From an uncultured Alphaproteobacteria bacterium (GTDB lineage Bacteria; Pseudomonadota; Alphaproteobacteria; Rhizobiales; Aestuariivirgaceae), in assembly GCA_963775095.1 (NCBI GenBank), contig CAVZHN010000015.1, positions 173,547 through 237,546 on the forward strand: a DNA stretch of 64,000 nucleotides, written 5' to 3'. Below, piece by piece: positions 4,555 through 60,101 of the stretch (its first letter is position 1; each line of letters opens with the position of its first letter). The translations under genes were made by a program, and so were the position numbers. Under the pieces are notes generated by a model. It made no database searches. It had not been told where the DNA came from and was given only the letters and a program-made list of their open reading frames with translations.

Positions 4555-8332
<3,778 letters not shown>

Positions 8333-27573: not shown

Positions 27574-27615
27574 AATTGGTTTCAAATCCGAGTCATTTCA
27601 ATGCGGAAATGAAGG

Positions 27616-28006
27616 TGCCAGCCGGCCTGTAAGCCGGGTTCTGTTTGGACGGTTTCCCGCCCGCGATGACCATTCATCTGGAACGCCCGTTACCGGACGC
27701 TTCGCGCGACCTACCCGGGCAGCAAGCCGGCTAAAGCCCCGGGCCGAAGCCCATGCCACCCCTATTCGGTCTTGCTCCCGGTGGGGTTTGCCGTGCCGCT
27801 TCCGTTGCCGGCCGCGCGGTGCGCTCTTACCGCACCGTTTCACCCTTGCCGTCGGGATTGCTCCGTCAGGCGGTCTGTTCTCTGTGGCACTTTCCCTGGG
27901 GTCGCCCCCGCCGGACGTTATCCGGCACCGTATAACCGTGGAGCCCGGACTTTCCTCCCCCGCGCCCTTTCGGGACTTGCGGCAGCGGTCATCCGGCCGA
28001 CTGGCA
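27616..28006 (-). ncRNA. rnpB: RNase P RNA (class A)
   Basis: Minus strand has GAGGAAAGTCCGGGCTC near the 5' end and ACAGAACCCGGCTTA near the 3' end; terminal P1 pairing TGCCAGTCGGCCGG / CCGGCTGGCA. Confidence 0.97.
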
Positions 28007-47684: not shown

Positions 47685-48300
47685 GATTCGGATCCTGTCT
47701 TACCGTGCCTGCGGATTGCACAACCACGCGGGTGCCGATCTGCACCTGATCGTAGAGGTGCACGATGTCGTAGTTCAACATGCCGAAGCAGCCGTTGGTG
47801 GCCTTCTTGCCCACGAGCTTCGGGTCGTGCGTGCCATGGATGCGGAAAATCGTGTCGACGCCGTTCTGGTAGAGATAGATCGCCCGCGCCCCCATCGGGT
47901 TCTTGGGGCCGCCCGGCATGCCGTTCTTGTATTGCACCATGTCGGGGCGCGCCGCGATATGCTCGGGCGTCGGCGTCCAGATGGGCCACTTCGCCATCTT
48001 GCCGATCTCGGTCACCCCCGTCCACGTTTTGCTGTCATGGCCGACGGCGATGCCATAACGCGTCGCCATGCCATTGCCCTGCACGAGATAGAGAAACCGC
48101 TTCTTAGGGATCACAACGACGGTGCCAGCGGGTTCCGAAGTCTCGAACTTGTCCTCGCGGCGCCGGTATTTGTATTCAACCTTCTTGGCTTCCTTTTCCG
48201 AAACCGGAAACAGCTCAGAGTCCTGCGCGAATGCGGCAGGTGTTCCGGCCAGGGCGGCCAACCCGGTGAGCAGCGAACGGCGGGAAATGAGGACAGTCAT
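47644..48300 (-). CDS. L,D-transpeptidase (ErfK/SrfK, YkuD domain), Tat-exported
   Basis: SRRSLL signal; GGPKNPMGARA, RIHGT, ATNGCFGM. Confidence 0.93.
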   Translation of the reverse strand: MTVLISRRSLLTGLAALAGTPAAFAQDSELFPVSEKEAKKVEYKYRRREDKFETSEPAGTVVVIPKKRFLYLVQGNGMATRYGIAVGHDSKTWTGVTEIGKMAKWPIWTPTPEHIAARPDMVQYKNGMPGGPKNPMGARAIYLYQNGVDTIFRIHGTHDPKLVGKKATNGCFGMLNYDIVHLYDQVQIGTRVVVQSAGTVRQDPNHDTSVGQGRAAGP

Positions 48301-48389
48301 ATGAGTCTCCGGATGGGCAATGGCGGGATGATACCGGAGACGGGAGCGGCGCGCAAATCCGCTCGGCGACTGCCCCACTCCCCGATACT

Positions 48390-48484
48390 GTCATCCCGGC
48401 GCAAGCCGGGACCCACTGACAATTTTTCAATGGGGCAGCGCTTGCTGAACGGGCTCACTGGGTCCCGGCTTTCGCCGGGATGAC
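48390..48484. repeat. REP/RIME-like inverted doublet
   Basis: GTCATCCCGGCGCAAGCCGGGACCCA (48390-48415) and TGGGTCCCGGCTTTCGCCGGGATGAC (48459-48484). Confidence 0.9.
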
Positions 48485-48528
48485 GGTTGTTGGGAAGCGT
48501 TACTCAGCGTCTTTCGCGTACTTTCGCC

Positions 48529-48690
48529 TCATTCTCCTGCGACATTTCCACAAACGACTTCTCCTGTCAGCAACTTGCGCAATTCCGGCAAATCACGCGG
48601 CGGCGCTTCCAGGGCGAGTTGAAACCGCTCCCACTGTTCGGCGTTCAGGTAGATCACCCGTTTTTCTTCAAATTCCGTTGCGTCATCCAT
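48529..48690 (-). CDS. DUF1778 (TacA-like) antitoxin C-terminal-only protein or fragment, 53 aa
   Basis: Manual translation MDDATEFEEKRVIYLNAEQWERFQLALEAPPRDLPELRKLL...; below the ORF-track cutoff. Confidence 0.6.
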   Translation of the reverse strand: MDDATEFEEKRVIYLNAEQWERFQLALEAPPRDLPELRKLLTGEVVCGNVAGE

Positions 48691-48701
48691 GGCCAAACGT
48701 T

Positions 48702-49063
48702 ATGACACAGGAACAAGAACGCGTCGAGACGGCCTCAATGCAAGCTTCTCCAACATACCACCGTTGGCTCCGCCAACATCTTCGCCGACATCGGCCTTCC
48801 CAATGCCGAGGAGCATCTGATCAAGGCGCAGCTGGTGGTGAAGATCGACACTCTGATGAAAGCCCGCAAACTCAAGCAGTGCTGACGCCGCCAAGCTGTT
48901 TGGCGTCAAGCAACCCGACATCTCTAAGATGCTGCACGGCGATTTCCGCCAATTCTCCGTCGAACGCCTGATGCGGTTTCTGGTGGCGCTTGGGCAGGAT
49001 GTGGAGATTGTGGTGAAGCCACAGAAGGTGAAGGGAGAGGCGGCGGCGCTAAGGGTAGCGTGA
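48702..49063 (+). CDS. XRE/HigA-like HTH antitoxin; indels at about 48755 and 48880
   Basis: GSANIFADIGLPNAEEHLIKAQL...AAKLFGVKQPDISKML.G.FRQFSVERLMRFLVALGQDVEIVV. Confidence 0.85.
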
Positions 49064-49178
49064 TGAATTATGAGACACACAAGGCAACATTGCCGATGAA
49101 GAGTTCCCCAGCATGCCCCATGCGGTTCAGGTGCGGCAAGCGGAATTTATTCGCGCTAAATTACCGAAGGGTTAACTC

Positions 49179-49930
49179 ATGACTAAAGGCAGTATCCACG
49201 AAAAACTTCCCAGACGTCGTAAAGGATCTTGCCCAAGCACTATCAGAACAGCAACGAAGTGGCAAACCGTATGTGGTTTCTCTGTTTTGGCATCACTATC
49301 CTTGTGATCGCAAATCTCAATCCAGCTAGAAATAGCAACTCGATTGACTTTCTGGGTGTAACACTGACACAAGAGATTCATCTGGCAGCAGCAATAGCAC
49401 TGTTGCTCGAACTTCGCCATTCTATGGCTAGCGAAGGCTCGAATCACAACGTTTAAATTGGGACGACATATCGCGAACTTGTTGATCCGCAAGGTACTCA
49501 ACGAGTCTGAACACATACTAGCCAATTCTACTTCAATGAAAGCTGCTGCGTTCTATCTGCTAAAGTCAAACTACAGCCGAATTCACCCAATATTCCACCA
49601 CATCGATCCGGACGGAAGTCAAAGCCGCTACACGCTAATTAGAGGCTCATAGACATTGCATACTCTGCTGTTCCATCGGGTAGCGAATAATACTCTCAGT
49701 GCATAATGGTTAACTGGCTTATCTAAACAGCGCCAATGGCGGTCCAGTGAATGGGTGACTGTGGTGTTACTAGGCAATTACAGGACTGTTTTCCGCTTTT
49801 CAACGTGCGTCCTCTGTTACTACGCATTAGTACGGACTCGATCTTCCGGAAACTTGAAGGCCTATCACACGAGTTTGACAATGACTTCCTGTTACTTGCG
49901 AATTGCTGGCACTTGGGCATTTCGCTTCCC
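49179..49930 (+). pseudogene. AT-richer foreign segment with a broken putative membrane-protein gene
   Basis: Visible drop in GC; short hydrophobic ORF pieces (49229-49456, 49458-49652) that appear to continue across frames. Confidence 0.4.
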
Positions 49931-51588
49931 TCACCGCGCAAACTGCTTGTACTTGATCCGCTTCGGCATCACGCTGTCTTCGCCCAGCCTGCGCTTCTTG
50001 TCTTCCTCGTAGTCCTGGAAATTCCCTTCAAACCATTCGACGTGGCTGTCGCCTTCGAAGGCCAGAATGTGCGTCGCCAATCGGTCCAGGAACATGCGGT
50101 CGTGGCTGATGATGACGGCGCAGCCGGCGAAATCTTCGAACGCCTCTTCGAGCGCCGCCAGGGTTTCGGTGTCGAGGTCGTTGGTCGGTTCGTCTAACAG
50201 CAAGACATTGGCACCGCTCTTCAGCATCTTGGCCAAGTGCACGCGATTGCGCTGGCCGCCCGACAGCGTGCCGACCTTCTGCTGCTGGTCGCCGCCCTTG
50301 AAATTGAAGGCGCCGGTATAGGCGCGGGAGTTCATCTCGCGCTTGCCGAGATAGAGCACGTCGTTGCCGCCGGAAATCTCCTGCCACACCGTCTTGTCGG
50401 GATCGAGCGAGTCGCGGCTTTGGTCGACGTAGCCCATCTGCACGCTCTCGCCGAACGAGATGGTGCCCGCGTCGGGAAGCTCCACACCCGTCAGCATACG
50501 GAACAATGTGGTTTTGCCCGCGCCATTGGGCCCGATGATGCCGACGATACCGCCGGGCGGCAGCTTGAAACTGAGATCGTCGATCAGCAGCCGGTCGCCA
50601 TAGGCCTTGCTCAGGCCCTCGACGGTGATGACATTGTCGCCCAAGCGCTCGCCCGGCGGAATGATGATCTGCGCCGTCGTTGACTTGAGGCGCTCGTCAT
50701 TGGCCTTGATCAGTTCGTCATAGGCCTTGAAGCGCGCCTTGGACTTGGCCTGCCGCGCCTTGGGCGATGAAGCGATCCACTCGCTCTCGCGCTCGATGAC
50801 TTTCTGCCGTGCTGCGTCCTCGCGCGATTCCTGGGAAAAACGCTTGGCCTTGGCCTTGAGATAGGCGGAATAATTGCCCTCGTAGGGAATGCCGCGGCCA
50901 CGGTCGAGTTCCAGAATCCAGCCCGTCACATTGTCGAGGAAGTAGCGGTCGTGGGTAACGATGAGAATCGAACCCGGATAATCGCGCAAGTGATGTTCAA
51001 GCCAGTTCACCGATTTCGGCGTCCGAGATGGTTGGTCGGCTCGTCGAGCAGCAGGAGATCGGGTTTGCGCAGCAGAAGCTGGGTGAGCGCTACCCGGCGC
51101 TTTTCGCCGCCCGACAGATTGTCGATTGACGCATCCCCCGGCGGGCAGCGCATGGCGTCCATCGCCTGCTCCACCTGGGCCTCGAGGTCCCACAGGTTCT
51201 GGGCGTCGATCACGTCCTGGAGCTTCGCCGCCTTGTCGGCGTTCTCCTCATTGTAGTCCATCATCAGCGCGTTGTAGTCGTCGAGGATCGCCTTCTTGGC
51301 GGCGACCCCTTCCATGACGTTGCCCATGACATCGAGTGCGGGATCAAGCTCCGGCTCCTGCTGCAGGTAGCCGCAGGTCGCACCTTCGGCGAGCCACGCC
51401 TCGCCGTTCCATTCCGTGTCGAGCCCCGCCATGATGCGCAGCAACGTCGACTTGCCCGAGCCGTTGGGGCCCAACACACCGATCTTGGCGTCCGGGTAGA
51501 ACGACAGGTGGATATTCTCAAGAACCTTTTTGCCACCGGCATAGGCCTTGGTGAGGCCTTGCATGTGATAGATGAACTGGCGCGCCAT
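49931..51588 (-). CDS. ettA: Energy-dependent translational throttle ABC-F protein; extra bases at about 51015 and 51024
   Basis: MARQFIYHM, two ABC domains (GPNGSGKS / LSGGEKRR; GPNGAGKT / LSGGQRNR), HLDAES restored by removing two bases, [16 protein letters not shown]. Confidence 0.96.
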
Positions 51589-51625: not shown

Positions 51626-52462
51626 CTAGCCCGCCCGTTTCACAAGGGCAATGCCGTTACGAGTGCTCCCCGGCCGAGCCGGCCTGTGCTGTTCCTCGGC
51701 CATGATCTTCTTCTGGTATCGGCCCTGCACGATATCGACGATGAGCAGCGCTCCCACCACGAAGTAGAACGTGGTTTTGGCCATCGGTTCCACCGGGAAA
51801 CCGAAGAACGCGAGATGCGCGATGTGGCCGCCTTCGGCCAGCAGCATGACGCCCACCAGCAGCAGCACGAACAGGCCAAGCACCTCATACATCCGGTTCT
51901 TCTGCAGGAAGGCCGCCACGTGTTCGGCCAGCGCCACCATGAGAATGCCGGAGAGCACGATGGCCGTGGCCATGACGATGAAGTTGTTGGTGAGCGCCAC
52001 CGCCGACAACACCGTGTCGAACGAAAACACGATGTTCATCACCATGATCCAGAACAGGGCGCGGGCGACGGTGGAATGTTTCGGCCCCGACCCCTCCTCA
52101 TGCTCAAGATCGTGCACCGCCAGCATGTGGAAGATTTCCTTGAGTGCGGTGTGAATGAGAAATGCCCCGCCCGCCAGCACGATCAGGCTGTGGCCGCTGA
52201 CGCTGGCCTCAAACACCGGCAGGTGCACGCTGAACAGCGGCGACTGGAAGGCGCTGATCAATTGCAGCACCACGAACAGCAGCGCGATGCGCAGCAGGAT
52301 GGCGAAGATCATGCCGACGCGGCGCACATATTTCTGCTGCGCCGGGGCGACCTTCTTCGCCTCGATGGAAATATAGAGAAGATTGTCGAAACCCAGCACC
52401 GTTTCCAGCGCCGTGAGGACCATCAGGGTGAAGAGATTCTCGATTGTGAAGAGGTCGGTCAT
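51626..52462 (-). CDS. TerC-family integral membrane protein
   Basis: LETVLGFDNLLYI, FSFDTVLSAV, LLLVGVMLLAEG. Confidence 0.93.
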   Translation of the reverse strand: MTDLFTIENLFTLMVLTALETVLGFDNLLYISIEAKKVAPAQQKYVRRVGMIFAILLRIALLFVVLQLISAFQSPLFSVHLPVFEASVSGHSLIVLAGGAFLIHTALKEIFHMLAVHDLEHEEGSGPKHSTVARALFWIMVMNIVFSFDTVLSAVALTNNFIVMATAIVLSGILMVALAEHVAAFLQKNRMYEVLGLFVLLLVGVMLLAEGGHIAHLAFFGFPVEPMAKTTFYFVVGALLIVDIVQGRYQKKIMAEEQHRPARPGSTRNGIALVKRAG

Positions 52463-52956
52463 GATTCTGGCGGATTAGCGCCCTTTCGCTCCATAAACAA
52501 CCACAACGCGACAGCGCCGGTACAGACCGCGGCGACCGCCAGCGCCACGGCGATGCCTCCGGTCTCCGGGCTGACCGGCAACATGCCGGTGAGCCCGGCG
52601 AATAGCATCACGCAACTGGCGGTCACGAACACCGCCACCAGCGCCGCCAGCTTGATCCCGGTTCCGCTTGACCGGCTCATCGTCACCACGCTCCACAATG
52701 CCGCCGCCAGAAACGGCGGGCCGCCGACCACCGCCACGGTGGTCAGGGTCACATAGGCGCCATCCATGCTGCCGAGAAAGAACAGACTGCAGCCGCCAGT
52801 GAACAGGGCGGTAAGGATGGCCGCTGCTGCGCCCAATACGCGAAGTCCCGAATGCCGGGGCTTGCCCTCGCCTGCCCGCCGCCGTTCGTGGCGCTCGAGC
52901 AGCCACCACAGCACGGCGATGAGCAGCAGCGGGCCAAGGAAGACAATGCTATACAT
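52459..52956 (-). CDS. Membrane protein with internal LFTGGC motif (paralog 3)
   Basis: 165 aa, about five hydrophobic segments, Cys56 in ILTALFTGGC; overlaps both neighbours. Confidence 0.8.
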   Translation of the reverse strand: MYSIVFLGPLLLIAVLWWLLERHERRRAGEGKPRHSGLRVLGAAAAILTALFTGGCSLFFLGSMDGAYVTLTTVAVVGGPPFLAAALWSVVTMSRSSGTGIKLAALVAVFVTASCVMLFAGLTGMLPVSPETGGIAVALAVAAVCTGAVALWLFMERKGANPPES

Positions 52957-53201
52957 CAGGGCTTCGCCTCCGGTTCCGCCTTTGCCTTGCGTTTTTCGCG
53001 GTCAATCCGCCACCCCTTGCGCAGCATGAACCAGCCCGCCACCAGCGGCAGCACGCCGAAGGGCAGCCAGACGCCCAGCATCAATCCCGGCTCCTCCACC
53101 AGCACTTCCACGCCATTGTACACTGTTGCCAGAAACACCAGCGTGCAGCCGCCGCCGAACAGCATCAGCAGCGCCCCCAGGATCATGAGCAGCACGTGCA
53201 T
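52956..53201 (-). CDS. Small membrane protein with LFGGGC motif (paralog 2)
   Basis: 81 aa, hydrophobic leader ending in Cys19, further TM, basic tail. Confidence 0.8.
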   Translation of the reverse strand: MHVLLMILGALLMLFGGGCTLVFLATVYNGVEVLVEEPGLMLGVWLPFGVLPLVAGWFMLRKGWRIDREKRKAKAEPEAKP

Positions 53202-53564
53202 CTAGAGGTTTCGCCAGTAAACGAAGGTGAAGGCCCCCTTGAGGGCGAAAAGCAGGACCGGCAAGCCGATGAGCAGGAAATCCTCGGTGTTGTTGAGGCC
53301 GACCTGGGCGATCAGTGGCAGCGACATCGCCACGACCAGGGCATCGAGGATGACCAGGGTGAGGAAAGCGCCCTTCCGCACCTTCATCTTCCCCCACAGG
53401 GCGCCGATCACCACCACGTTGAGAAGCGCCAGCCCGCCGGGGATAACGGCGAGCGGCGCCGCGAAAATCGCACCCCCGATGCCGCTGCCCGCGAAAATCG
53501 TCAGCGCGCAGCCACCAGCGAACAGCACGATGATGGCGCACAGGATGGTGAGAAGGATTTTCAT
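53202..53564 (-). CDS. Small membrane protein with LFAGGC motif (paralog 1)
   Basis: 120 aa, MK plus hydrophobic leader ending in Cys19, further TM segments; ATGA overlap with the radical SAM stop. Confidence 0.8.
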   Translation of the reverse strand: MKILLTILCAIIVLFAGGCALTIFAGSGIGGAIFAAPLAVIPGGLALLNVVVIGALWGKMKVRKGAFLTLVILDALVVAMSLPLIAQVGLNNTEDFLLIGLPVLLFALKGAFTFVYWRNL

Positions 53565-54973
53565 GCCGCGCCCTTCGACCGCGCCATGCGCTTGCGTGCC
53601 GCTTCGTCGCGGTAGAACAGGTTGTAGGTTTCGAACGGAATGATCTGCCCCGCCGGTGTCACGAAATGGATGCAGGACCGCTTGACGCGGCTCAAACAGA
53701 AATTATGCGCGTCCATGAACTCGACGATGGCAATGCGGAAGATGTTTTCATAACCGAAACCCTCCGGCACCGGCACTTCCGGCAGGCAGCACAGGAGCGC
53801 GTTGAGCTTTTCCGGATTGTTGCATTCCGCCGTGGCCAGCGAGAAGAAATTGAGCACCTGCTTGTGCAGGTCCGGGAACTTCTCGAAGGTGATGGCGTTG
53901 GGCAGCGCCTCTACCAGCATGTCTTTCGGAAAGAACGAAGTGATCGGCGCGATCCTGTCGCCCTTCCGCAGCGCATAGCCGATGGCGATCGATTCCGGAT
54001 TGCACGGCAAGGGAATGATGTCGCCCTCGCCGAACGGGGTTTTCGCTGCGATGATCTTGCGGCGAATGTCGGAGAGCACGATGCGGTCGGTGCCCGGGTC
54101 GAAATTCTCGTTCCGCCCCGCATCCTGGATCGGCTGGAAGGTGATGCCGCGCACGCATTTCCATTGGAGCGCATAGTTGATGATGTCGCCCAACTCGTCG
54201 TCATTCACCCCGGCCTTCACCACGACAACCAGCGTTGTCGAAATCGATTCCCGTTCAAGGGCTTCCAGCGCTTCCCTGCGAATCCGCGTGAGGTCGGCGC
54301 CGCGCAAGGTCTTGTGAACCGAAGCCCTTAGCGAGTCGAATTGCAGGTAGACTTCAAAACCCGGAGTCAAAGTCTTGAGCTGACTCACGAATTCCGGGTC
54401 CTGGGCGATGCGGATGCCGTTGGTGTTGAGCATCAAATGCCGTATCGGCCGGGCCTTGGCGGCTTTCAGAATGTCGATGATCTGCGGATGAATGGTCGGC
54501 TCGCCACCGGAAATTTGCAAAAGGTCAGGCTCGCCCTCGCTGGCCACCAGCGCATCCATCATGCGCTCGATTTCGGCCAAGGGCCGGTGCGCCGTGTGGG
54601 CCGTCGAACTGCCGGCAAAACACACCGGGCACGTCAGGTTGCAGGCCTCGTTGATGTCGATGAGGGCGAGGCAGGAATGCTGTTCATGGTCCGGGCACAG
54701 CCCGCAATCATAGGGACAGCCCTCCTCGGTACGGGTCTGCGGCGCCAGAGGCCGGTCGCCGGGCTTCAGGTAGTCGTGGCACAACTTGTAGTAGTTGATG
54801 TCGGTCGAAACCAGGCTCTTCTCCACACCATGGGTGCGGCAGCGCTTCTGGTACCACACCTTGCCGTCGTCGAAGATGATCTTGGCCGGAACCAGCGCCA
54901 GGCACTGCGAGCACAGTGACGTCGTTTGCCCATAGAACACATAGGGCGCGATCTTACGGATGGGGGCGTTCAC
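53561..54973 (-). CDS. Radical SAM protein, Tes/GDGT-MAS (MJ0619)-like family
   Basis: CSQC...CRTH, CPYDCGLCPDH, CNLTCPVCFA (CxxxCxxC), SGGEPT, NTNG, YLQFD, C-terminal CC and RSCIH. Confidence 0.88.
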   Translation of the reverse strand: MNAPIRKIAPYVFYGQTTSLCSQCLALVPAKIIFDDGKVWYQKRCRTHGVEKSLVSTDINYYKLCHDYLKPGDRPLAPQTRTEEGCPYDCGLCPDHEQHSCLALIDINEACNLTCPVCFAGSSTAHTAHRPLAEIERMMDALVASEGEPDLLQISGGEPTIHPQIIDILKAAKARPIRHLMLNTNGIRIAQDPEFVSQLKTLTPGFEVYLQFDSLRASVHKTLRGADLTRIRREALEALERESISTTLVVVVKAGVNDDELGDIINYALQWKCVRGITFQPIQDAGRNENFDPGTDRIVLSDIRRKIIAAKTPFGEGDIIPLPCNPESIAIGYALRKGDRIAPITSFFPKDMLVEALPNAITFEKFPDLHKQVLNFFSLATAECNNPEKLNALLCCLPEVPVPEGFGYENIFRIAIVEFMDAHNFCLSRVKRSCIHFVTPAGQIIPFETYNLFYRDEAARKRMARSKGAA

Positions 54974-55667
54974 GGGGTCCTCCGATCATCGCAACCGAAT
55001 AAATCACGAGTCCCGCGCAAATGAAATGGAAGAGATTGAAGGGCCCGAGAACCGTGCCATAGGGCTTGAGGAATTCCCACAGGAAGCGCTGGGCGCCGTA
55101 GTAACCGGCCAGCAGATAGAAGCCGTTGCTCATGAAGAATCGCTGCCGGCGGCCAAGCATGATGAGAGAAAAAACCAGGAACGCCGCCATGGCGAAGCTT
55201 TCATAAAGCTGCACCGGATGGCGGGGAATGCCATCGCCGAAATCATAGCCCCACGGAAGCGCGGTGGCGATGCCGTGGGTCTGGTCGTCGAGCCCTGACA
55301 GGAAGCAACCCCAGCGGCCTACCATCACGCTTGTCGCAAACGCCGGCACGAAAATAAGCCCCGTCGACCCTTTGATGCCGGAATACCGCTTAAAGACTTC
55401 GATTGCCACAATCGCCCCGGCCAGCGCCCCCACGATACTGCGGCCCACACCCGGCGCACCCGTGAGCCACAGGTTGAGGCTCCCTGCCCCGAACCCGCCA
55501 GCCACCGCCCCAAGGATCAGCGCCAAGGCGTAGGCATAGCCTGCGCTTTCAATCCGTGCTGAAGCTTCCGCCAGCCGCCAGCGATAGGCGGCAAATGTCA
55601 TGGCCATCGCTGCCGCCGCCGAAAACAGATCAAAGAGTGTGTGGACGATCATGACAACAGGTATCAC
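54954..55667 (-). CDS. Divergent prolipoprotein diacylglyceryl transferase (Lgt) family protein
   Basis: GRWGCF, LPWG, RHPVQLYES, RFLWEF; GRSIVGAL replaces the canonical GMSFHGG. Confidence 0.88.
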   Translation of the reverse strand: MIPVVMIVHTLFDLFSAAAAMAMTFAAYRWRLAEASARIESAGYAYALALILGAVAGGFGAGSLNLWLTGAPGVGRSIVGALAGAIVAIEVFKRYSGIKGSTGLIFVPAFATSVMVGRWGCFLSGLDDQTHGIATALPWGYDFGDGIPRHPVQLYESFAMAAFLVFSLIMLGRRQRFFMSNGFYLLAGYYGAQRFLWEFLKPYGTVLGPFNLFHFICAGLVIYSVAMIGGPRERPHP

Positions 55668-55792: not shown

Positions 55793-57943
55793 ATGCTTAG
55801 ACTCGACAGCTGGAAGTTCCTGCTTATCGTGGCGCTGCCGCTGGCGGTCGCGACTTTGGCGGTCAGCATCTTCACCTTTGACCTCATGTCGCGCGTGACG
55901 ACTGGCGCCAACCAGGCGGATCACGAAAAGACCCAGCAGATCGTGTTGTCGGCACTAAACGCCGCCCAGCAGCAGATTGCCAATATGGCCACCGATAACT
56001 CCTACTGGGACGACGCCGTCCGCCAGTTTTATGCAAAAGACCTCGACGAAGACTGGGTAGCCGAAAGCTATGGGGTGCCCACCGAAGATGGCGTGAACTA
56101 TCACCTGATGCTGCTGGTCGATAGGGCAATGCCTGAAGCAGTGACCGGATACCGCGCCGGCGAGCAATTTCGTCCCAATCTCAGTACTTATTTCAAATCC
56201 GGCCTGCTTGGCTTGATCGCACCATTGCCGTCCAACCTGGTTGATCACGCTTCCCGCGGGGCCCTGATGCAGACCGCCGACGGAATTGCCGTGGTTGCGG
56301 CCGCGCCGATCGTGCCCACCTCCGAAGACGTCAAGGTCGAAGCGAAGGAAGCCCGCTACCTCGTCTTTGCCCGTTTCCTGAACGAAGACGTGCTCCGGCA
56401 GATCGGCGACCAATATGTGCTCCAGGATCTGAAGCTGCTGCCCCTCGAGGAAGCCCCTTCCGGCGCCACTCTCCTGCAAGGTTTCGACGGCCAGCCGGTG
56501 GCCGCCGTCGCCTGGAAGGAGAGCCGGCCGGGCGACGCCGCATTTCGCTCGGTATCGCTGCTGGCGGTGGTGGCGCTCGGCATTCTCGCCGCTGTCATGT
56601 TCGGTATCGGACTTCTGTGCTGGCGGCTCTTCCGCGACATTGGCAGGAGGGAGCGCACGTCCCGCCACGCGGCACTCCACGACAACCTGACCGGCCTGCC
56701 CAATCGCGCCGGGCTGGTGCAGCATCTGCATGCGAAACTTGCAGAAGGAAACGAACTTGCCCTGGCATTCGCCGACCTCGACGGCTTCAAGGAGGTCAAC
56801 GATACCTACGATCACGAGACCGGCGACACTCTCATCCGCGCCGTGGCCGAAGGCATGCGCTATCTGGGAACCGGCGACGCCTTTGTTGCCCGGCTTGGCG
56901 GCGACGAATTCGTCGCTGTATTCACTGGCCAGGCCGCAGACACCCAGGTCGAGAAGTTCTCGTCAAACCTGATTTCATTGCTGCACACTCCATTCGACCT
57001 CGATGGCCGCCACGCTGCGGTCGGTGTCAGCATTGGAATCGCCCATGCAGGCACCGGGTTGACGGTTACCGAAGTCATGCGGCGGTCCGATGTCGCCATG
57101 TATGAGGCAAAGCGCCTCGGCAAGAACCGCGCGGTGGTCTACGAGCCAGCCATAGACAGCGCGCGGATTGCCAGTGCGGACATTGCCAGACACTTGAAGC
57201 AATTCATCGGCGACGGGACGATGGCCATCGCCTATCAGCCTATCGTATCCTCGGAGACCGGGCAAATCGTCGCCGTCGAAGCCCTGGCGCGCTGGCCAGC
57301 CGGTTTGCAGCCCACCGTGACACCCGACCGGTTTGTTGCCGTTGCCGAATCAAGCGGCCTCATTGATGAACTCGGCGAGGCCATCCTGCGCCGCGCCTGC
57401 ACCGATGCCGCGGGTTGGGGTGAGTTGCGGCTCAGTGTAAACGTTTCGCCGGTCCAGCTCCGCGACCCGGATTTCGTGACGCGGGTGCTCAAGGTCCTTG
57501 GCCAAACCGGCTTCAGCCCTGAGCGCCTCGAACTTGAAGTTACCGAAAGCGTGGTTCTTGACGACTTCGAGCGGACCCGCCGGCAATTTGCCGCCTTGCA
57601 CGCCGCCGGCATCGCCATTGCTCTCGACGACTTCGGAACCGGTTTCTCGAGCATCGGCTACTTGCGCAAACTGCAGTTCGACAGAATCAAGATCGACCGC
57701 TCCATCACCTCGAAAATACTGAGCAGCGTGACCGAACAGCAGATCGTCCAGGGTACGGTCCTGATGGCCTCGGCACTAACCGCCAGCGTCACCGCCGAAG
57801 GCGTGGAGCAGCGCGCCTCGATACAGATACTGCGGCTTGCCGGTTGCCGCGAGCTACAGGGCTTTTATTTCCACAAGCCGATGACGGCGCAAATGATCGG
57901 CATGTTGCTGAGCGCACCGCAGACGGCAGCGTTGGCAGGCTAG
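55793..57943 (+). CDS. Membrane-bound CHASE4-GGDEF-EAL c-di-GMP enzyme
   Basis: TM, DNSYWDDA periplasmic domain, TM, HDNLTGLPNR, DLDGFKEVND, RLGGDEF, VEALARW, DDFGTGFSS, EGVE, QGFYF. Confidence 0.95.
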   Translation: MLRLDSWKFLLIVALPLAVATLAVSIFTFDLMSRVTTGANQADHEKTQQIVLSALNAAQQQIANMATDNSYWDDAVRQFYAKDLDEDWVAESYGVPTEDGVNYHLMLLVDRAMPEAVTGYRAGEQFRPNLSTYFKSGLLGLIAPLPSNLVDHASRGALMQTADGIAVVAAAPIVPTSEDVKVEAKEARYLVFARFLNEDVLRQIGDQYVLQDLKLLPLEEAPSGATLLQGFDGQPVAAVAWKESRPGDAAFRSVSLLAVVALGILAAVMFGIGLLCWRLFRDIGRRERTSRHAALHDNLTGLPNRAGLVQHLHAKLAEGNELALAFADLDGFKEVNDTYDHETGDTLIRAVAEGMRYLGTGDAFVARLGGDEFVAVFTGQAADTQVEKFSSNLISLLHTPFDLDGRHAAVGVSIGIAHAGTGLTVTEVMRRSDVAMYEAKRLGKNRAVVYEPAIDSARIASADIARHLKQFIGDGTMAIAYQPIVSSETGQIVAVEALARWPAGLQPTVTPDRFVAVAESSGLIDELGEAILRRACTDAAGWGELRLSVNVSPVQLRDPDFVTRVLKVLGQTGFSPERLELEVTESVVLDDFERTRRQFAALHAAGIAIALDDFGTGFSSIGYLRKLQFDRIKIDRSITSKILSSVTEQQIVQGTVLMASALTASVTAEGVEQRASIQILRLAGCRELQGFYFHKPMTAQMIGMLLSAPQTAALAG

Positions 57944-57986: not shown

Positions 57987-60101
57987 CTATTCCTGATGGT
58001 CCAGGGCTTCCTTGATGATCTTGTGCAGATCTTCCCGGCGGTAGGGTTTCATGATGATGAACCCCTCGCGGAACCGCGGCTCTTCCTGGTGCACCATGGC
58101 GCCCTTGGGATAGCCGGAAGTGTGGACGATCTTCAGCCCCGGCCGCATCGAGCGCGCCGCCTGCGCCAGGTCGAAACCATTCATGCCGCCTGGCATGACA
58201 ACGTCCGAGAACATGAGATCGACATCGGGGTTTTCCTGCAGCCTGGCCAGCGCCTGCAGGCCGTCCTCCGCCTCGATCACTTCATAGCCGAAATCCGTGA
58301 GGAAGCCGCAGGCCACGGCCCGCACCGCTTCCTGGTCCTCGACCACCAAGAGCTTGGGCGCCGTCTTCACCGGCAAGGTGAGCGGCGGAGCTTCTTCGAT
58401 GACGGCGGGTTCTGGCGGTAGCGCCGCAACCTCTTCCACCGTCGGCTCAGCTACCGCCGGCATCTCCTCGCCGGCCGCAAACTGGCGCGGCAGATACATC
58501 TTGATGGCCGTGCCGTGGCCGACTTCCGAATAGACGCTGATATGGCCGCCCGACTGCTTGATGAAACCATAGACCATGGCAAGCCCGAGCCCCGAGCCCT
58601 TGCCCGTTTCCTTGGTGGTGAAGAACGGCTGAAAGACTTTCTCCAGCACTTCGGGAGGAATGCCGGTGCCAGTGTCCGAAACCGCCACCATGACATAATG
58701 GCCGGGTTCAACTTCGGGATGCCGCTCGGCATAGGCCTGGTCAAGATAAACAGGCTGCGTCTCGATGGTGAGATGCCCGCCTCTCGGCATGGCGTCACGG
58801 GCATTGATGCACAGATTGAGCACCGCCGACTCGAGCTGCGAAGCGTCGATGATGGCCTTGGGCTCGCCCGCCATGGCATCGACCTTGAGTTCGATGGTTT
58901 CGCCGATGGTGCGCGACAGAAGCGGCGATAGGCCCTTGACCAGATCGTTGATCCGAACCTCGCTGGGCTCCAGCGCCTGCTTGCGGGCGAACGCCAGCAT
59001 TTGCCGCGTCAGGTCGGAGCCCTTGCGCGCCGCATCGATCGCTTCGCCGAGGCGGCGCATGCCGCGCTCGTCGCCATCGATTTTTCCTTCCAGCAGCTGC
59101 AGATTGCCGATCACCACGGTCAGAAGATTGTTGAAATCATGCGCCAGGCCGCCGGTCAGTTGGCCGATGGCTTCCATCTTCTGGGCCTGTTGCAAATTGC
59201 GCTGCGACTGCAGTTTCTCGGTATTGTCAAGGACCTGAACGGTCAATTGCTCGATCTCGCCGTGCTCGTTGCGCACCAGCGCGACCGTTGTCGAACAGCT
59301 GATGGGCTTGCCGTCGGGCAACACAAACCGCAGGTCCTGATAGAAGTTCACCAGCGAGCCCTGAATGAGTTCGCCCACTCCCTTGAGGAAAGCCTGCCGG
59401 TCTTCCCGGTACAGGAGTTCGTCGAACGCCTGAAGGCCGGCTTCCGGCCTGCGCCTTAGCATGGTCCAGAACGCCTGGTTGGCCACCGCGATTTCGCCGG
59501 TGGGGGCGACCAGCGCCATGCCATGCGCCGCTTCCTCGAAGGCGCTCTTGAACCGCCGGTCATCGACCACCGTAACCGCCTGCTCGACCTTGATCGATAC
59601 CGGTTCGGTCAGCACGCAGACCGAGCGCTCGATGCGGCCCTTGTCGCCGCGATAGGCATTCATCGACAGGAGGATTTGCGCCGGCGCTCCATCCTTGCGC
59701 ATGATGGTGAAAACTTCGTCGCGGCATTGGCCGCTCTGCAGATAGGCCGGCATCACCTTCTGCACCAGCCGCGCCCGCAATTCCGGTGCCAGAAGTTCCG
59801 TGAACATGCGGCCTTCGACGTCCGAAAGCTGATACCCCAGCGCCCGCGACCACTGGCTGTTGACCGATGTGATGCGGCCCGACCCATCCATGGCATGCAT
59901 CAGCACCGGCATGTTGTGCAGCAATTGCTCGTAGACCTTGCCGTTCTGATCCGGGAAGAACGGAAGATAGGCCGCGTGCGTCACCGCCGGTCTTTCGATC
60001 TTCCACGTTGGGGCAGACTGGCGCAACTCATCCCAACCCTGGAATGGTTCGGCAAGATTGCTGGTCTTCATCGGCGATGTCATAAAATTGGCCTTTGGCA
60101 A
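57987..60101 (-). CDS. Cytoplasmic PAS-PAS hybrid histidine kinase with C-terminal receiver
   Basis: Two PAS/PAC domains, AHDFNNLL H-box, NLCINARDAM, DTGTG, GSGLGL, receiver VVEDQ...SDVVMPG; start may be 60083 or 60071. Confidence 0.94.
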   Translation of the reverse strand: MPKANFMTSPMKTSNLAEPFQGWDELRQSAPTWKIERPAVTHAAYLPFFPDQNGKVYEQLLHNMPVLMHAMDGSGRITSVNSQWSRALGYQLSDVEGRMFTELLAPELRARLVQKVMPAYLQSGQCRDEVFTIMRKDGAPAQILLSMNAYRGDKGRIERSVCVLTEPVSIKVEQAVTVVDDRRFKSAFEEAAHGMALVAPTGEIAVANQAFWTMLRRRPEAGLQAFDELLYREDRQAFLKGVGELIQGSLVNFYQDLRFVLPDGKPISCSTTVALVRNEHGEIEQLTVQVLDNTEKLQSQRNLQQAQKMEAIGQLTGGLAHDFNNLLTVVIGNLQLLEGKIDGDERGMRRLGEAIDAARKGSDLTRQMLAFARKQALEPSEVRINDLVKGLSPLLSRTIGETIELKVDAMAGEPKAIIDASQLESAVLNLCINARDAMPRGGHLTIETQPVYLDQAYAERHPEVEPGHYVMVAVSDTGTGIPPEVLEKVFQPFFTTKETGKGSGLGLAMVYGFIKQSGGHISVYSEVGHGTAIKMYLPRQFAAGEEMPAVAEPTVEEVAALPPEPAVIEEAPPLTLPVKTAPKLLVVEDQEAVRAVACGFLTDFGYEVIEAEDGLQALARLQENPDVDLMFSDVVMPGGMNGFDLAQAARSMRPGLKIVHTSGYPKGAMVHQEEPRFREGFIIMKPYRREDLHKIIKEALDHQE

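Follow-up and report, generated by a model that had tools for sequence, protein, structure and literature searches.

We report that a radical SAM protein (rSAM) encoded by an uncultured alphaproteobacterium is a member of the MJ0619/Tes/GDGT-MAS radical SAM superfamily, in which it appears to have kept three of the four metal sites of GDGT-MAS and to have lost the ligands of the fourth, the C-terminal cluster. Its gene lies in a stretch of DNA of 64,000 nucleotides that was analyzed as a whole (the window), where gene order and overlaps show it as the middle gene of a conserved, seemingly translationally coupled cassette, between a gene for an Lgt-like membrane protein and genes for small Cys-containing membrane proteins. 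The ligand loss, together with this Lgt-like/Cys-peptide cassette, points to lipid or lipoprotein modification rather than to tetraether synthesis. The explanation that we favor, with a probability of about 0.55, is that this protein is a derived Tes-superfamily rSAM working in a lipid or lipoprotein modification system, and is not a tetraether synthase.

The rSAM contains the Pfam domain Zn_ribbon_HMPTM (PF23545; E 7e-18, 64.3 bits for a gathering cut-off of 27) followed by Radical_SAM (PF04055; E 5e-21, 76.1 bits for a gathering cut-off of 29.5), the succession that marks the MJ0619-like superfamily (InterPro IPR034474). GDGT-MAS itself (7tol_A) matches it in phmmer with an E value of 4.9e-66. 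Using Foldseek, we found that the predicted structure aligns over its full length with 7tom (TMq 0.77, 488 columns, E 8e-29) and 7tol (TMq 0.74, about 490 columns, E 1e-28), in a model of modest quality that was built from an 11-sequence alignment (pLDDT 63.7, pTM 0.72, and pLDDT below 50 in every metal-binding region); the next-best PDB matches have a TM below 0.4. The superfamily membership put forward in the first-pass annotation is borne out, also by the superposition on GDGT-MAS that it had suggested as a check. All the motifs that it had listed are present in the ORF (Table 1), C86-PYD-C90-GL-C93-PD-H96 being encoded by codons 54718-54686, and the motif set is far beyond chance expectation. 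It had named grouping with the MoaA, PqqE and SPASM maturases as speaking against its proposal, and the protein is not one of these. MoaA membership was rejected at 60.4 bits for a cut-off of 284, SPASM maturases at only 27-45 bits for cut-offs of 250-650, and PqqE at an E value of only 0.71 for the PDB protein; SkfB and MoaA overlay the rSAM on the RS core only, with a TM below 0.4. No SPASM, twitch or RRE domain was detected in the window rSAM.

Table 1. Genes of the cassette and sites of the rSAM in the window (positions are those of the window)
Feature	Position	Strand	Description
Lgt-like integral membrane protein	54954..55667	minus	237 aa; Pfam LGT
Tes/GDGT-MAS-family radical SAM gene	53561..54973	minus	470 aa; GTG start, TGA stop
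Rubredoxin-like site C21-x2-C24-x20-C45-x2-H48	54830..54913	minus	same spacing as GDGT-MAS C9X2C12X20C33X2H36
N-terminal auxiliary [4Fe-4S] motif C86-x3-C90-x2-C93-x2-H96, with H99 and C101	54671..54718	minus	aligned with GDGT-MAS
Radical SAM cluster motif C111-x3-C115-x2-C118 (C111-NLT-C115-PV-C118)	54620..54643	minus	from Pfam, alignment and orthologues
C324 (PLPCNP)	54002..54004	minus	first of the alternative C-terminal Cys set; invariant in orthologues
C395-C396 (LLCCLP)	53786..53791	minus	extra loop compared with archaeal Tes; invariant in orthologues
S433-C434-I-H436	53666..53677	minus	S433 at the position of Tes C455; C434 and H436 invariant
Small membrane ORF 1	53202..53564	minus	120 aa; G-G-C19 in TM1, Cys codon 53508-53510
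Small membrane ORF 2	52956..53201	minus	81 aa; G-G-C19, Cys codon 53145-53147; abuts ORF 1
Small membrane ORF 3	52459..52956	minus	165 aa; G-G-C56, Cys codon 52789-52791; overlaps ORF 2 by 1 nt
TerC-family membrane protein	51626..52462	minus	Pfam TerC, E 3e-38; start overlaps ORF 3 by 4 nt

We compared the metal sites with those of GDGT-MAS residue by residue. The rubredoxin-like residues C21, C24, C45 and H48 are kept in 81-82 of the 82 orthologues, and C86, C90, C93 and H96, which align with C73, C77, C80 and H83 of GDGT-MAS, are kept in all 82. H99 and C101 are family-specific and invariant, the position of C101 being occupied by I, V, L or M in archaeal Tes. In this alignment, the predicted sites of the SAM-cleaving [4Fe-4S], of the rubredoxin-like Fe and of the N-terminal auxiliary [4Fe-4S] are all retained. 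At the C-terminal cluster, [4Fe-4S]C, the Tes positions C338, M439, C455 and C470, of which the three Cys were taken as ligands from their invariance in archaea and not from coordinates, align with S328, V417, S433 and E448, such that all four presumed ligands are lost. Position 433 is occupied by S, T or A in the 82 orthologues, with no Cys among them, and position 448 by D or E in every case; the position of Tes Tyr459 is F437 in the window rSAM. In Tes, the lipid radical is captured by the sulfide of this C-terminal cluster. The four-site Tes layout claimed in the first-pass annotation is therefore found residue for residue at the rubredoxin-like, N-terminal and RS sites and breaks down at the C-terminal cluster, where the auxiliary Cys fall at positions other than those of the Tes ligands, an outcome that the annotation had itself named as speaking against its proposal. 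The C-terminal Cys that it had pointed out, SCIH included, are present, and they are not the cluster ligands of GDGT-MAS. They form an alternative set with H436 and D/E448 that adjoins the old Tes ligand positions: C324, C395, C396, C434 and H436 are invariant in 82/82 orthologues, and archaeal Tes has S, F or V at the position of C324 and a gap at that of C395-C396. C273 is also among the new invariant residues of the subfamily. Of 77 family representatives, 53 have both C324 and C434, and 37 of these carry at least two Cys in the 380-405 loop, compared with 7 of the 24 others.

The best-scoring NCBIfam model for the window rSAM is TrsS (NF045646), at 304 bits for a cut-off of 490, and the Tes equivalog (NF045702) gives 283.7 bits, in two stretches, for a cut-off of 450; 10 family representatives likewise score under both cut-offs. 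In an NJ tree without bootstrap support, the window clade is monophyletic and the most distant from archaeal Tes, and family representatives with an intact Tes ligand triad group elsewhere. These results suggest that the window rSAM is part of a bacterial subfamily of its own, derived and separate from both Tes and TrsS. Orthologues with at least 50% identity occur in Proteobacteria, Bacillota, Bacteroidota, Cyanobacteria and others, at least eight phyla, and the family is thus not alphaproteobacterial; bacterial Tes homologues, proteobacterial ones included, were already in the literature (PMC8941075, PMC9433317). Carriers of the subfamily include Bradyrhizobium, Bacillaceae and Flavobacteriia and, judging by the named genera, are mostly aerobes. 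A scan among GTDB species genomes yielded more than 490 relatives, and the family of the Lgt-like partner comprises more than 6,000 clusters.

At 74 of 82 loci, in at least eight phyla, the rSAM is immediately preceded by an Lgt-like ORF of the same strand that abuts or overlaps it, and five of the eight loci without such an ORF have no upstream flank. In the window, the stop of the Lgt-like gene overlaps the GTG start of the rSAM by 20 nt; translation of the Lgt-like gene may really begin at the ATG of M6. A single polypeptide with LGT, Zn_ribbon_HMPTM and Radical_SAM is found in two cases (P0244 and P0339), each from one contig only. A reverse look-up starting from Lgt-like proteins returned the order LGT, rSAM and two 67-aa genes, the small genes being annotated independently in public records. 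The partner in the window matches Pfam LGT (E 2e-16, 60.3 bits for a cut-off of 24.9) and does not reach the NCBIfam lgt equivalog TIGR00544 (29.9 bits for 118.9), and a profile of 55 Lgt-like orthologues matches E. coli Lgt (5azb) with an E value of 3.8e-11. In this profile alignment, R143, H196, Y235, R239 and E243 of E. coli Lgt correspond to R118, H150, Y190, R194 and E198 of the partner. R118 and R194 are invariant in the 55 orthologues and align with GR143LGNF and FR239IIVEF of 5azb, in which R143 and R239 are essential residues of the enzyme. The position of Lgt N146 is an invariant Cys (C121) in the partner, H103 aligns with a hydrophobic residue and E151 is out of register; given that these three residues are absent in register, true diacylglyceryl transfer by the partner is uncertain. 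The AF2 model of the partner has seven helices (pLDDT 85.7), and when this confident model was compared with the PDB by Foldseek, nothing matched significantly and 5azb was absent from the list, so that the kinship to Lgt rests on sequence profiles.

Downstream of the rSAM, we found 84 small transmembrane ORFs with a G-x-C-type Cys motif at 57 of the 82 loci, one to three after each rSAM, and none at the other 25. Of their starts, 83 lie between -300 and +900 nt relative to the rSAM stop, in the same orientation; in other places, and on the other strand, the background amounts to 0-3 per bin of 300 nt. These ORFs were recovered solely by position and motif analysis, and BLAST clustering of the neighbors across loci gave no conserved partner except the Lgt-like gene. 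The encoded proteins are very hydrophobic and of 60-165 aa, with the Cys, in Alphaproteobacteria, in the first of several helices. About 16-20 hydrophobic residues separate the G-x-C from a preceding charged stretch, much as the lipobox Cys is placed in the signal peptide of a lipoprotein. In the window, the rSAM stop and the ATG of small ORF 1 overlap by 4 nt, and homologues of this ORF occupy the same position at loci L001 and L003-L005. The cassette thus reads Lgt-like seven-helix protein, rSAM and one to three small membrane proteins, with junctions that, in the window, overlap or abut. A promoter and terminator scan gave no excess over shuffled expectation, and a search of RNA-seq runs for the locus returned only metagenomic DNA runs, with 5-25% of the k-mers, and no transcripts. 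The TerC gene at the end of the series is probably co-transcribed with the cassette in the window and also adjoins it in A. litoralis; because this adjacency is lineage-specific and TerC is absent from the neighbors conserved across loci, we do not consider it as core to the cassette. No protease or transporter is conserved near the rSAM across the 82 loci. At one related subfamily locus, ArsP, Sulf_transp and ICMT are found beside the rSAM and LGT genes, and at another DsbD_TM and a methyltransferase.

We propose that the Lgt-like protein, in which both of the essential Arg of Lgt are kept, would bind a phosphatidylglycerol-type lipid and would either present it to the rSAM or move its diacylglyceryl group onto the cysteine of G-x-C. 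The cytoplasmic rSAM, fused in some organisms to the C terminus of the Lgt-like protein, would abstract a hydrogen from an unactivated carbon of a hydrophobic substrate, and the reaction would be finished at the new four-Cys site, yielding a modified lipid or a lipid-protein conjugate and no tetraether. Action of the rSAM on acyl chains is plausible, and gains from the indirect support that the Lgt-like partner, absent from the first-pass annotation, gives. It counts against this scheme that, by homology, the Lgt active site and the Cys of G-x-C should be at the periplasmic leaflet and the rSAM in the cytoplasm. In a more specific version, which we regard as doubtful, the cassette would be a so far unrecognized, cross-phylum protein-lipidation system, in which the Lgt paralogue S-lipidates the Cys of G-x-C in dedicated small membrane peptides and the rSAM then cross-links or cyclizes the lipid tails or links the peptide with a carbon of the lipid; if true, lipopeptide or lipoprotein anchors of a new, covalently modified class would result.

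The rSAM might instead, along the lines of the first-pass annotation, be a functional analogue of Tes, coupling the termini of two acyl chains by a C(sp3)-C(sp3) bond to make membrane-spanning or macrocyclic diacyl lipids, which we consider rather unlikely. The cluster that, in Tes, stores the lipid radical as a C-S adduct has each of its three Cys ligands replaced here, none of the 82 orthologues has a Cys at 433 or 448, the Tyr459 conserved in archaea is a Phe, the Tes equivalog cut-off is missed, and the bacterial homologues that show the Tes ligand pattern belong to other clades. The carriers, moreover, include Bradyrhizobium, Bacillaceae and Flavobacteriia, for which we know of no production of membrane-spanning lipids. 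Such a role would nevertheless fit the full-length GDGT-MAS architecture with three of the four metal sites, as well as the phospholipid-handling fold of the Lgt-like partner. GDGT-MAS binds E. coli phospholipids, and its M439A variant retains activity, so that the labile Met ligand is dispensable; Tyr459 is fully conserved across 1000 archaeal homologues (PMC9433317). For bacterial Tes homologues, a role in the synthesis of brGDGTs or membrane-spanning lipids has been put forward (PMC8941075), but up to 2025 production of such lipids was confirmed for none of them (PMC11868695).

We also considered a RiPP-like maturase, in which the rSAM would modify the small ORF peptides directly, with, for instance, a thioether or another kind of cross-link formed at the Cys, the Lgt-like protein being a scaffold, export or immunity factor. 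The one to three tandem small ORFs, with a single Cys motif each and right after the rSAM, do resemble RiPP precursors, and the four-Cys site could carry a thiolate-binding auxiliary cluster, as in sactisynthases. This role is nonetheless improbable, as SPASM, twitch and RRE domains were not detected (SPASM scores of 27-45 bits), the neighborhood has no conserved protease or transporter, and the small proteins are very hydrophobic and transmembrane, at 60-165 aa; it would also leave unexplained the pairing and fusion with a phospholipid-transferase homologue.

A cassette for metal or metalloid handling, with organometal(loid) or selenium chemistry in place of lipid modification, is very unlikely: the (seleno)protein TrsS is the best NCBIfam model, TerC is translationally coupled in the window, and ArsP/Sulf_transp/ICMT and DsbD_TM/methyltransferase occur at single related loci, but the TrsS cut-off is missed (304 for 490 bits), TerC and ArsP are not conserved over the 82 loci, and the Lgt-like protein and small membrane ORFs are the only universal partners. 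Pterin C-methylation is hardly credible: the JGI name 7,8-dihydro-6-hydroxymethylpterin (HMPT) dimethyltransferase, borne by many homologues, close ones included, and in line with the Pfam domain name HMPTM, was dropped as a legacy annotation inherited from the old assignment of MJ0619, the conserved partners are membrane proteins and not pterin enzymes, and the family is found in Bacillota, Bacteroidota and Cyanobacteria, where we know of no methanopterin pathway. MJ0619 has since been shown to be a tetraether/macrocyclic archaeol synthase (PMC9433317).

Study of the cassette may reveal new radical lipid or lipoprotein chemistry. To our knowledge, Tes/GDGT-MAS is the sole enzyme shown to join lipid tails by C(sp3)-C(sp3) bonds via an Fe-S-bound intermediate, and the role of the many bacterial Tes homologues bears on how brGDGT paleoclimate proxies are read. 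With the catalytic cluster ligands gone, it is too simple to class a large bacterial clade among the tetraether or brGDGT synthases. What is new here is the upstream pairing or fusion with an Lgt-like protein and the small G-x-C membrane ORFs downstream of the rSAM; a literature search for a pairing of Lgt with radical SAM, or for "lipo-invert," returned nothing relevant. The analysis yields a cassette of three defined genes, a candidate for its substrate and a group of four Cys. Carriers such as Bradyrhizobium, Sphingomonas, Flavobacteriia and Bacillaceae have cultured members, some of them genetically tractable.

Among known systems, GDGT-MAS/Tes (M. jannaschii MJ0619, 7TOL/7TOM) shares with the window rSAM a full-length identity of about 30-33%, the four-domain architecture, and the CX2CX20CX2H, CX3CX2CX2H, RS CX3CX2C and GGEPT SAM motifs. 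In contrast, the Tes residues C338/M439/C455/C470/Y459 are S/V/S/E/F in the window rSAM, which has invariant C324, CC395/396, C434, C101 and C273 of its own and, unlike archaeal Tes, is bacterial and coupled to an Lgt-like gene and G-x-C membrane peptides. Zeng et al. (2022, PMC8941075) proposed a part in brGDGT synthesis for bacterial Tes homologues that are, like the window rSAM, uncharacterized members of the same superfamily; the window rSAM falls in a clade without the ligand triad, whereas triad-keeping homologues fall elsewhere, and we assume that the acidobacterial brGDGT candidates keep the triad. TrsS (NF045646), for which the literature that we searched held no functional description, aligns with the window rSAM end to end (residues 16-455 with 2-434 of the 441 model positions), but the window rSAM, unlike this (seleno)protein, has no in-frame UGA. 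Mss of Thermotoga and Thermoanaerobacter, compared here by its description, is a bacterial radical SAM protein acting on fatty-acyl tails; it is found in anaerobes and, according to its authors, is only remotely related to Tes (PMC13159169). Finally, E. coli Lgt (5AZB) and the partner have in common Pfam LGT, a seven-helix body (predicted in the partner) and the RHPxQLYE signature; the partner, at 237 aa compared with 291 aa, is much shorter in the segment of the periplasmic head domain and, unlike Lgt, is paired with an rSAM.

The radical SAM gene (rSAM) opens with GTG and closes with TGA, and its start is called correctly, since close relatives share the N-terminus MNAPxRK. All of the motifs that the first-pass annotation had described in this ORF were found where it had placed them: C21-x2-C24 ... 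C45-x2-H48, C86PYDC90GLC93PDH96, C111NLTC115PVC118 and S433-C434-I-H436. In the encoded protein Pfam recognises an N-terminal HMPTM zinc ribbon (E 7e-18) and, after it, Radical_SAM (E 5e-21), and among solved structures its sole strong match is the tetraether-lipid synthase (Tes, or GDGT-MAS) of M. jannaschii, 7tol_A (E 4.9e-66), with SPASM/twitch enzymes and PqqE at noise level only. An AlphaFold model of moderate quality (pLDDT 63.7, pTM 0.72), in which the metal loops are poorly defined, superposes over its full length on 7TOM/7TOL (TMq 0.77/0.74, about 490 columns, E 1e-28). Together, these matches bear out the proposed membership of the MJ0619/Tes/GDGT-MAS superfamily. A placement among the MoaA/PqqE/SPASM maturases is ruled out by the structure-sequence matches and the superposition, because GDGT-MAS matches the protein over its full length, whereas SkfB, MoaA and viperin superpose on the RS core alone (TM <0.4).

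GDGT-MAS has four metal sites, namely a rubredoxin-like Fe site (C9X2C12X20C33X2H36), the [4Fe-4S]N cluster (ligands C73, C77, C80 and a His), the RS cluster, and the [4Fe-4S]C cluster with a labile Met439, at which the lipid radical was captured as a C-S adduct (Lloyd et al., PMC9433317). We mapped these ligands by pairwise alignment and in a 93-sequence alignment including MJ0619 and nine other archaeal Tes. The expectation that the auxiliary Cys align with Tes ligands holds for the N-terminal sites and fails at the C terminus: the first three sites are exactly kept (C21/C24/C45/H48, C86/C90/C93/H96 and C111/C115/C118), whereas C338, M439, C455 and C470, invariant in archaeal Tes, align with S328, V417, S433 and E448. 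Their invariance suggests that C338, C455 and C470 are the three Cys ligands of the Tes [4Fe-4S]C cluster, with M439 as its Met. Tyr459 of Tes, reported as completely conserved (PMC9433317), is F437 in the window protein. In 82 orthologues from many phyla, position 433 is S, T or A and never Cys (0/82), and position 448 holds D or E throughout (82/82). C324, C395, C396, C434 and H436 are invariant (82/82), as are C101 and H99, and C273 is found in 79/82. C324 lies four residues and C434 one residue from the old Tes ligand positions, while C395 and C396 sit within a loop missing from archaeal Tes.

A census of C-terminal Cys patterns in 77 full-length family representatives gave 26 with the Tes triad, C324/C434 and at least two loop Cys, 14 with the triad and C324/C434 without loop Cys, 10 with the triad only and no loop Cys, 11 with C324/C434 and loop Cys but lacking the triad (the window type together with a CxC variant), and 16 with other combinations. 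From these sequences we infer two C-terminal Cys sites in the family: Tes would have kept the first, the window clade the second alone, and many bacterial members both. In a neighbor-joining tree without bootstraps, archaeal Tes stand at one end, followed by bacteria with the Tes pattern and then a five-Cys grade; the window clade is monophyletic (21 representatives) and lies at the far end, beside the CxC group. The window protein scores best against two NCBIfam models, with 304 bits for TrsS (cut-off 490) and 284 bits for Tes (cut-off 450), and reaches neither cut-off; ten representatives from different ligand groups likewise fall below both cut-offs. Judged by its sequence, the window protein is a member of the superfamily but no Tes equivalog. 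Two representatives with the Tes ligand pattern carry further domains: P0383 (861 aa) has a MobA-like NTP transferase and an HD domain before the Tes-like rSAM, and P0376 (688 aa) has DUF5714 after it.

The closest named relatives, from Aestuariivirga and other Hyphomicrobiales, share 80-86% identity with the window protein, and freshwater sediment metagenomes hold k-mers of the window. An exhaustive representative search returned 673 clusters (50% identity) at E <1e-30, and at least 492 relatives were confirmed in GTDB species genomes. The view of an alphaproteobacterial enzyme gave way here, as orthologue loci occur in many phyla. The best 80 of these at least 492 (49-87% identity) include Alphaproteobacteria (Bradyrhizobium, Rhodoplanes, Sphingomonas, Phenylobacterium, Dongia), Beta-/Gammaproteobacteria (Massilia, Oleiagrimonas), Bacillota (Heyndrickxia, Niallia, Paenibacillus, Cohnella, Fictibacillus), Bacteroidota (Winogradskyella, Olleya, Aequorivita, Chitinophaga, Lewinella), Cyanobacteria (Fischerella), and MAGs of Acidobacteriota, Planctomycetota, Gemmatimonadota and Actinomycetota.

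Features of the window
Feature	Position	Strand	Details
RNase P class A RNA, bacterial	27614-28004	-	286 bits, full-length model; sole Rfam match in window
ABC-F (EttA-like) ATPase gene	49931-51588	-	two overlapping ORFs, different frames
ABC-F ORF part	49931-51193	-	420 aa
ABC-F ORF part	51007-51588	-	193 aa
Small hydrophobic ORF	52459-52956		165 aa; after rSAM
Small hydrophobic ORF	52956-53201		81 aa; after rSAM
Small hydrophobic ORF	53202-53564		120 aa; after rSAM
rSAM	53561-54973	-	470 aa
Lgt-like gene	54954-55667	-	directly upstream of rSAM; 20-nt overlap with rSAM start
GGDEF/EAL-type signalling protein (by motifs)	55793-57943	+	upstream side of cassette; separate transcription unit
Hybrid histidine kinase with PAS-like regions	57987-60101	-	upstream side of cassette; separate transcription unit

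The Lgt-like gene encodes an LGT-family membrane protein (Pfam 60 bits, cut-off 24.9) that falls far below the lgt equivalog cut-offs. At 74/82 loci such an ORF lies directly upstream of the rSAM on the same strand; five of the other eight have less than 700 nt of upstream flank, and only L053, L069 and L073 have a full flank yet no Lgt-like ORF in it. The gene lies downstream of the rSAM in L007 (7514-8305), L008 (7433-8554) and L067 (9286-9852), on contigs assigned by binning to Planctomycetota or 'Kuenenia'; the L007 and L008 binning may be wrong, since their proteins share 75-76% identity with the alphaproteobacterial window protein. The Lgt-like gene and the rSAM overlap in the window and most loci, unlike in Aestuariivirga litoralis (L001), where an extra 150-188 aa membrane ORF (7552-8004, +) lies between them. 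Two representatives, P0244 (window clade) and P0339, on one contig each, join LGT, Zn_ribbon_HMPTM and Radical_SAM in one polypeptide. A reverse look-up from the Lgt-like proteins, whose family exceeds 6,000 clusters (90% identity), most of which bear the name 'prolipoprotein diacylglyceryl transferase (family protein)', found two flavobacterial chromosomes with the order LGT, rSAM and two 67-aa genes, all called by public annotation. A profile of 55 orthologues matches E. coli Lgt 5AZB (E 3.8e-11), and in this alignment R143, H196, Y235, R239 and E243 are retained, an invariant Cys (GRxGC) stands in place of N146, and H103 and E151 are out of register. AF2 modelled the Lgt-like protein confidently, with seven helices, yet Foldseek did not retrieve 5AZB with this model.

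In the window a TerC gene comes after the three small ORFs, the junctions from the rSAM through to TerC overlap by 1-4 nt or abut, and each small ORF carries LF[AGT]GGC[ATS]L within a predicted transmembrane helix. Of the 82 loci, 57 have one to three small transmembrane ORFs bearing a [small]-x-C motif, 84 in all. Their starts cluster at the rSAM stop (31, 35, 13 and 4 in 300-nt bins from -300 to +900, same strand), while the same filter gives 0-3 starts in other bins and on the opposite strand. Gly occupies position -2 of the Cys in 64/84, and an uncharged hydrophobic run, with a median length of 16 residues (IQR 16-20), separates the last charged residue from the Cys. Bacteroidota, Bacillota and Cyanobacteria have the Cys 3-16 residues from the C terminus (e.g. 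...KKAAKVLFIIAVVYVIISLGICGALMAGF), and Alphaproteobacteria have it within the first of several helices. These small proteins were assigned to no Pfam or NCBIfam family. One flavobacterial ORF (L049, 7587-7793) hit NF058595 at noise level, which is not significant (E 0.53, 10.6 bits, cut-off 37); the name of this model, 'lipo-invert putative C-terminal anchoring domain', suggests that NCBI curators recognise some C-terminal lipid-anchor signal, and we found no paper using the term 'lipo-invert'.

Among the loci compared, no neighbour is conserved across lineages beyond the Lgt-like gene and the small membrane ORFs. A five-Cys subfamily locus has the order small transmembrane ORF (ending ...AGVVCY), rSAM, LGT and ArsP, so the association reaches beyond the window clade. 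Of two five-Cys loci with both C-terminal Cys sets, L082 has DsbD_TM and a class I methyltransferase beside the rSAM, and L084 has LGT, an ArsP permease and a Sulf_transp/ICMT protein there, which suggests functional diversification within the family.

Elsewhere in the window, the ABC-F gene is split, whether by a frameshift, by decay to a pseudogene or by a sequencing error; the syntenic A. litoralis gene (L001, 10812-12467) encodes one protein of 551 aa that has two ABC_tran domains. The GC content of 48001-50000 is 0.53, against about 0.61 elsewhere, and the stretch from about 48.5 to 49.9 kb holds no long ORF and no Rfam match at the gathering threshold.

The three-part cassette of Lgt-like gene, rSAM and small membrane ORFs is observed in both composition and statistics. 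The rSAM would still generate a 5'-deoxyadenosyl radical and, judging by the GDGT-MAS homology and the membrane partners, would attack an unactivated carbon of a hydrophobic substrate. Two-step C-C coupling of the Tes type is doubtful for the window enzyme, since its sequence has lost the ligands of the radical-storing cluster. A phosphatidylglycerol-type lipid is the probable ligand of the Lgt-like partner, with the G-x-C cysteine as a plausible acceptor. Homology would place the Lgt site and this Cys at the periplasmic leaflet and the rSAM in the cytoplasm, which poses a topological problem.

Bacterial Tes homologues are known from the 456 sequences, proteobacterial ones included, of Zeng et al. 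(PMC8941075) and from the similarity network of Lloyd et al. (PMC9433317). As of 2025 none was confirmed to make membrane-spanning lipids (PMC11868695), and a 2026 review adds only Mss (PMC13459092). Our literature search found no paper tying the rSAM family to Lgt-like genes or small Cys peptides. While they differ from a canonical lipobox in the often bulky residue at position -1, the small ORFs resemble a lipoprotein signal peptide with its lipobox, in that a charged stretch leads into a hydrophobic run, which is followed by small residues and a Cys.
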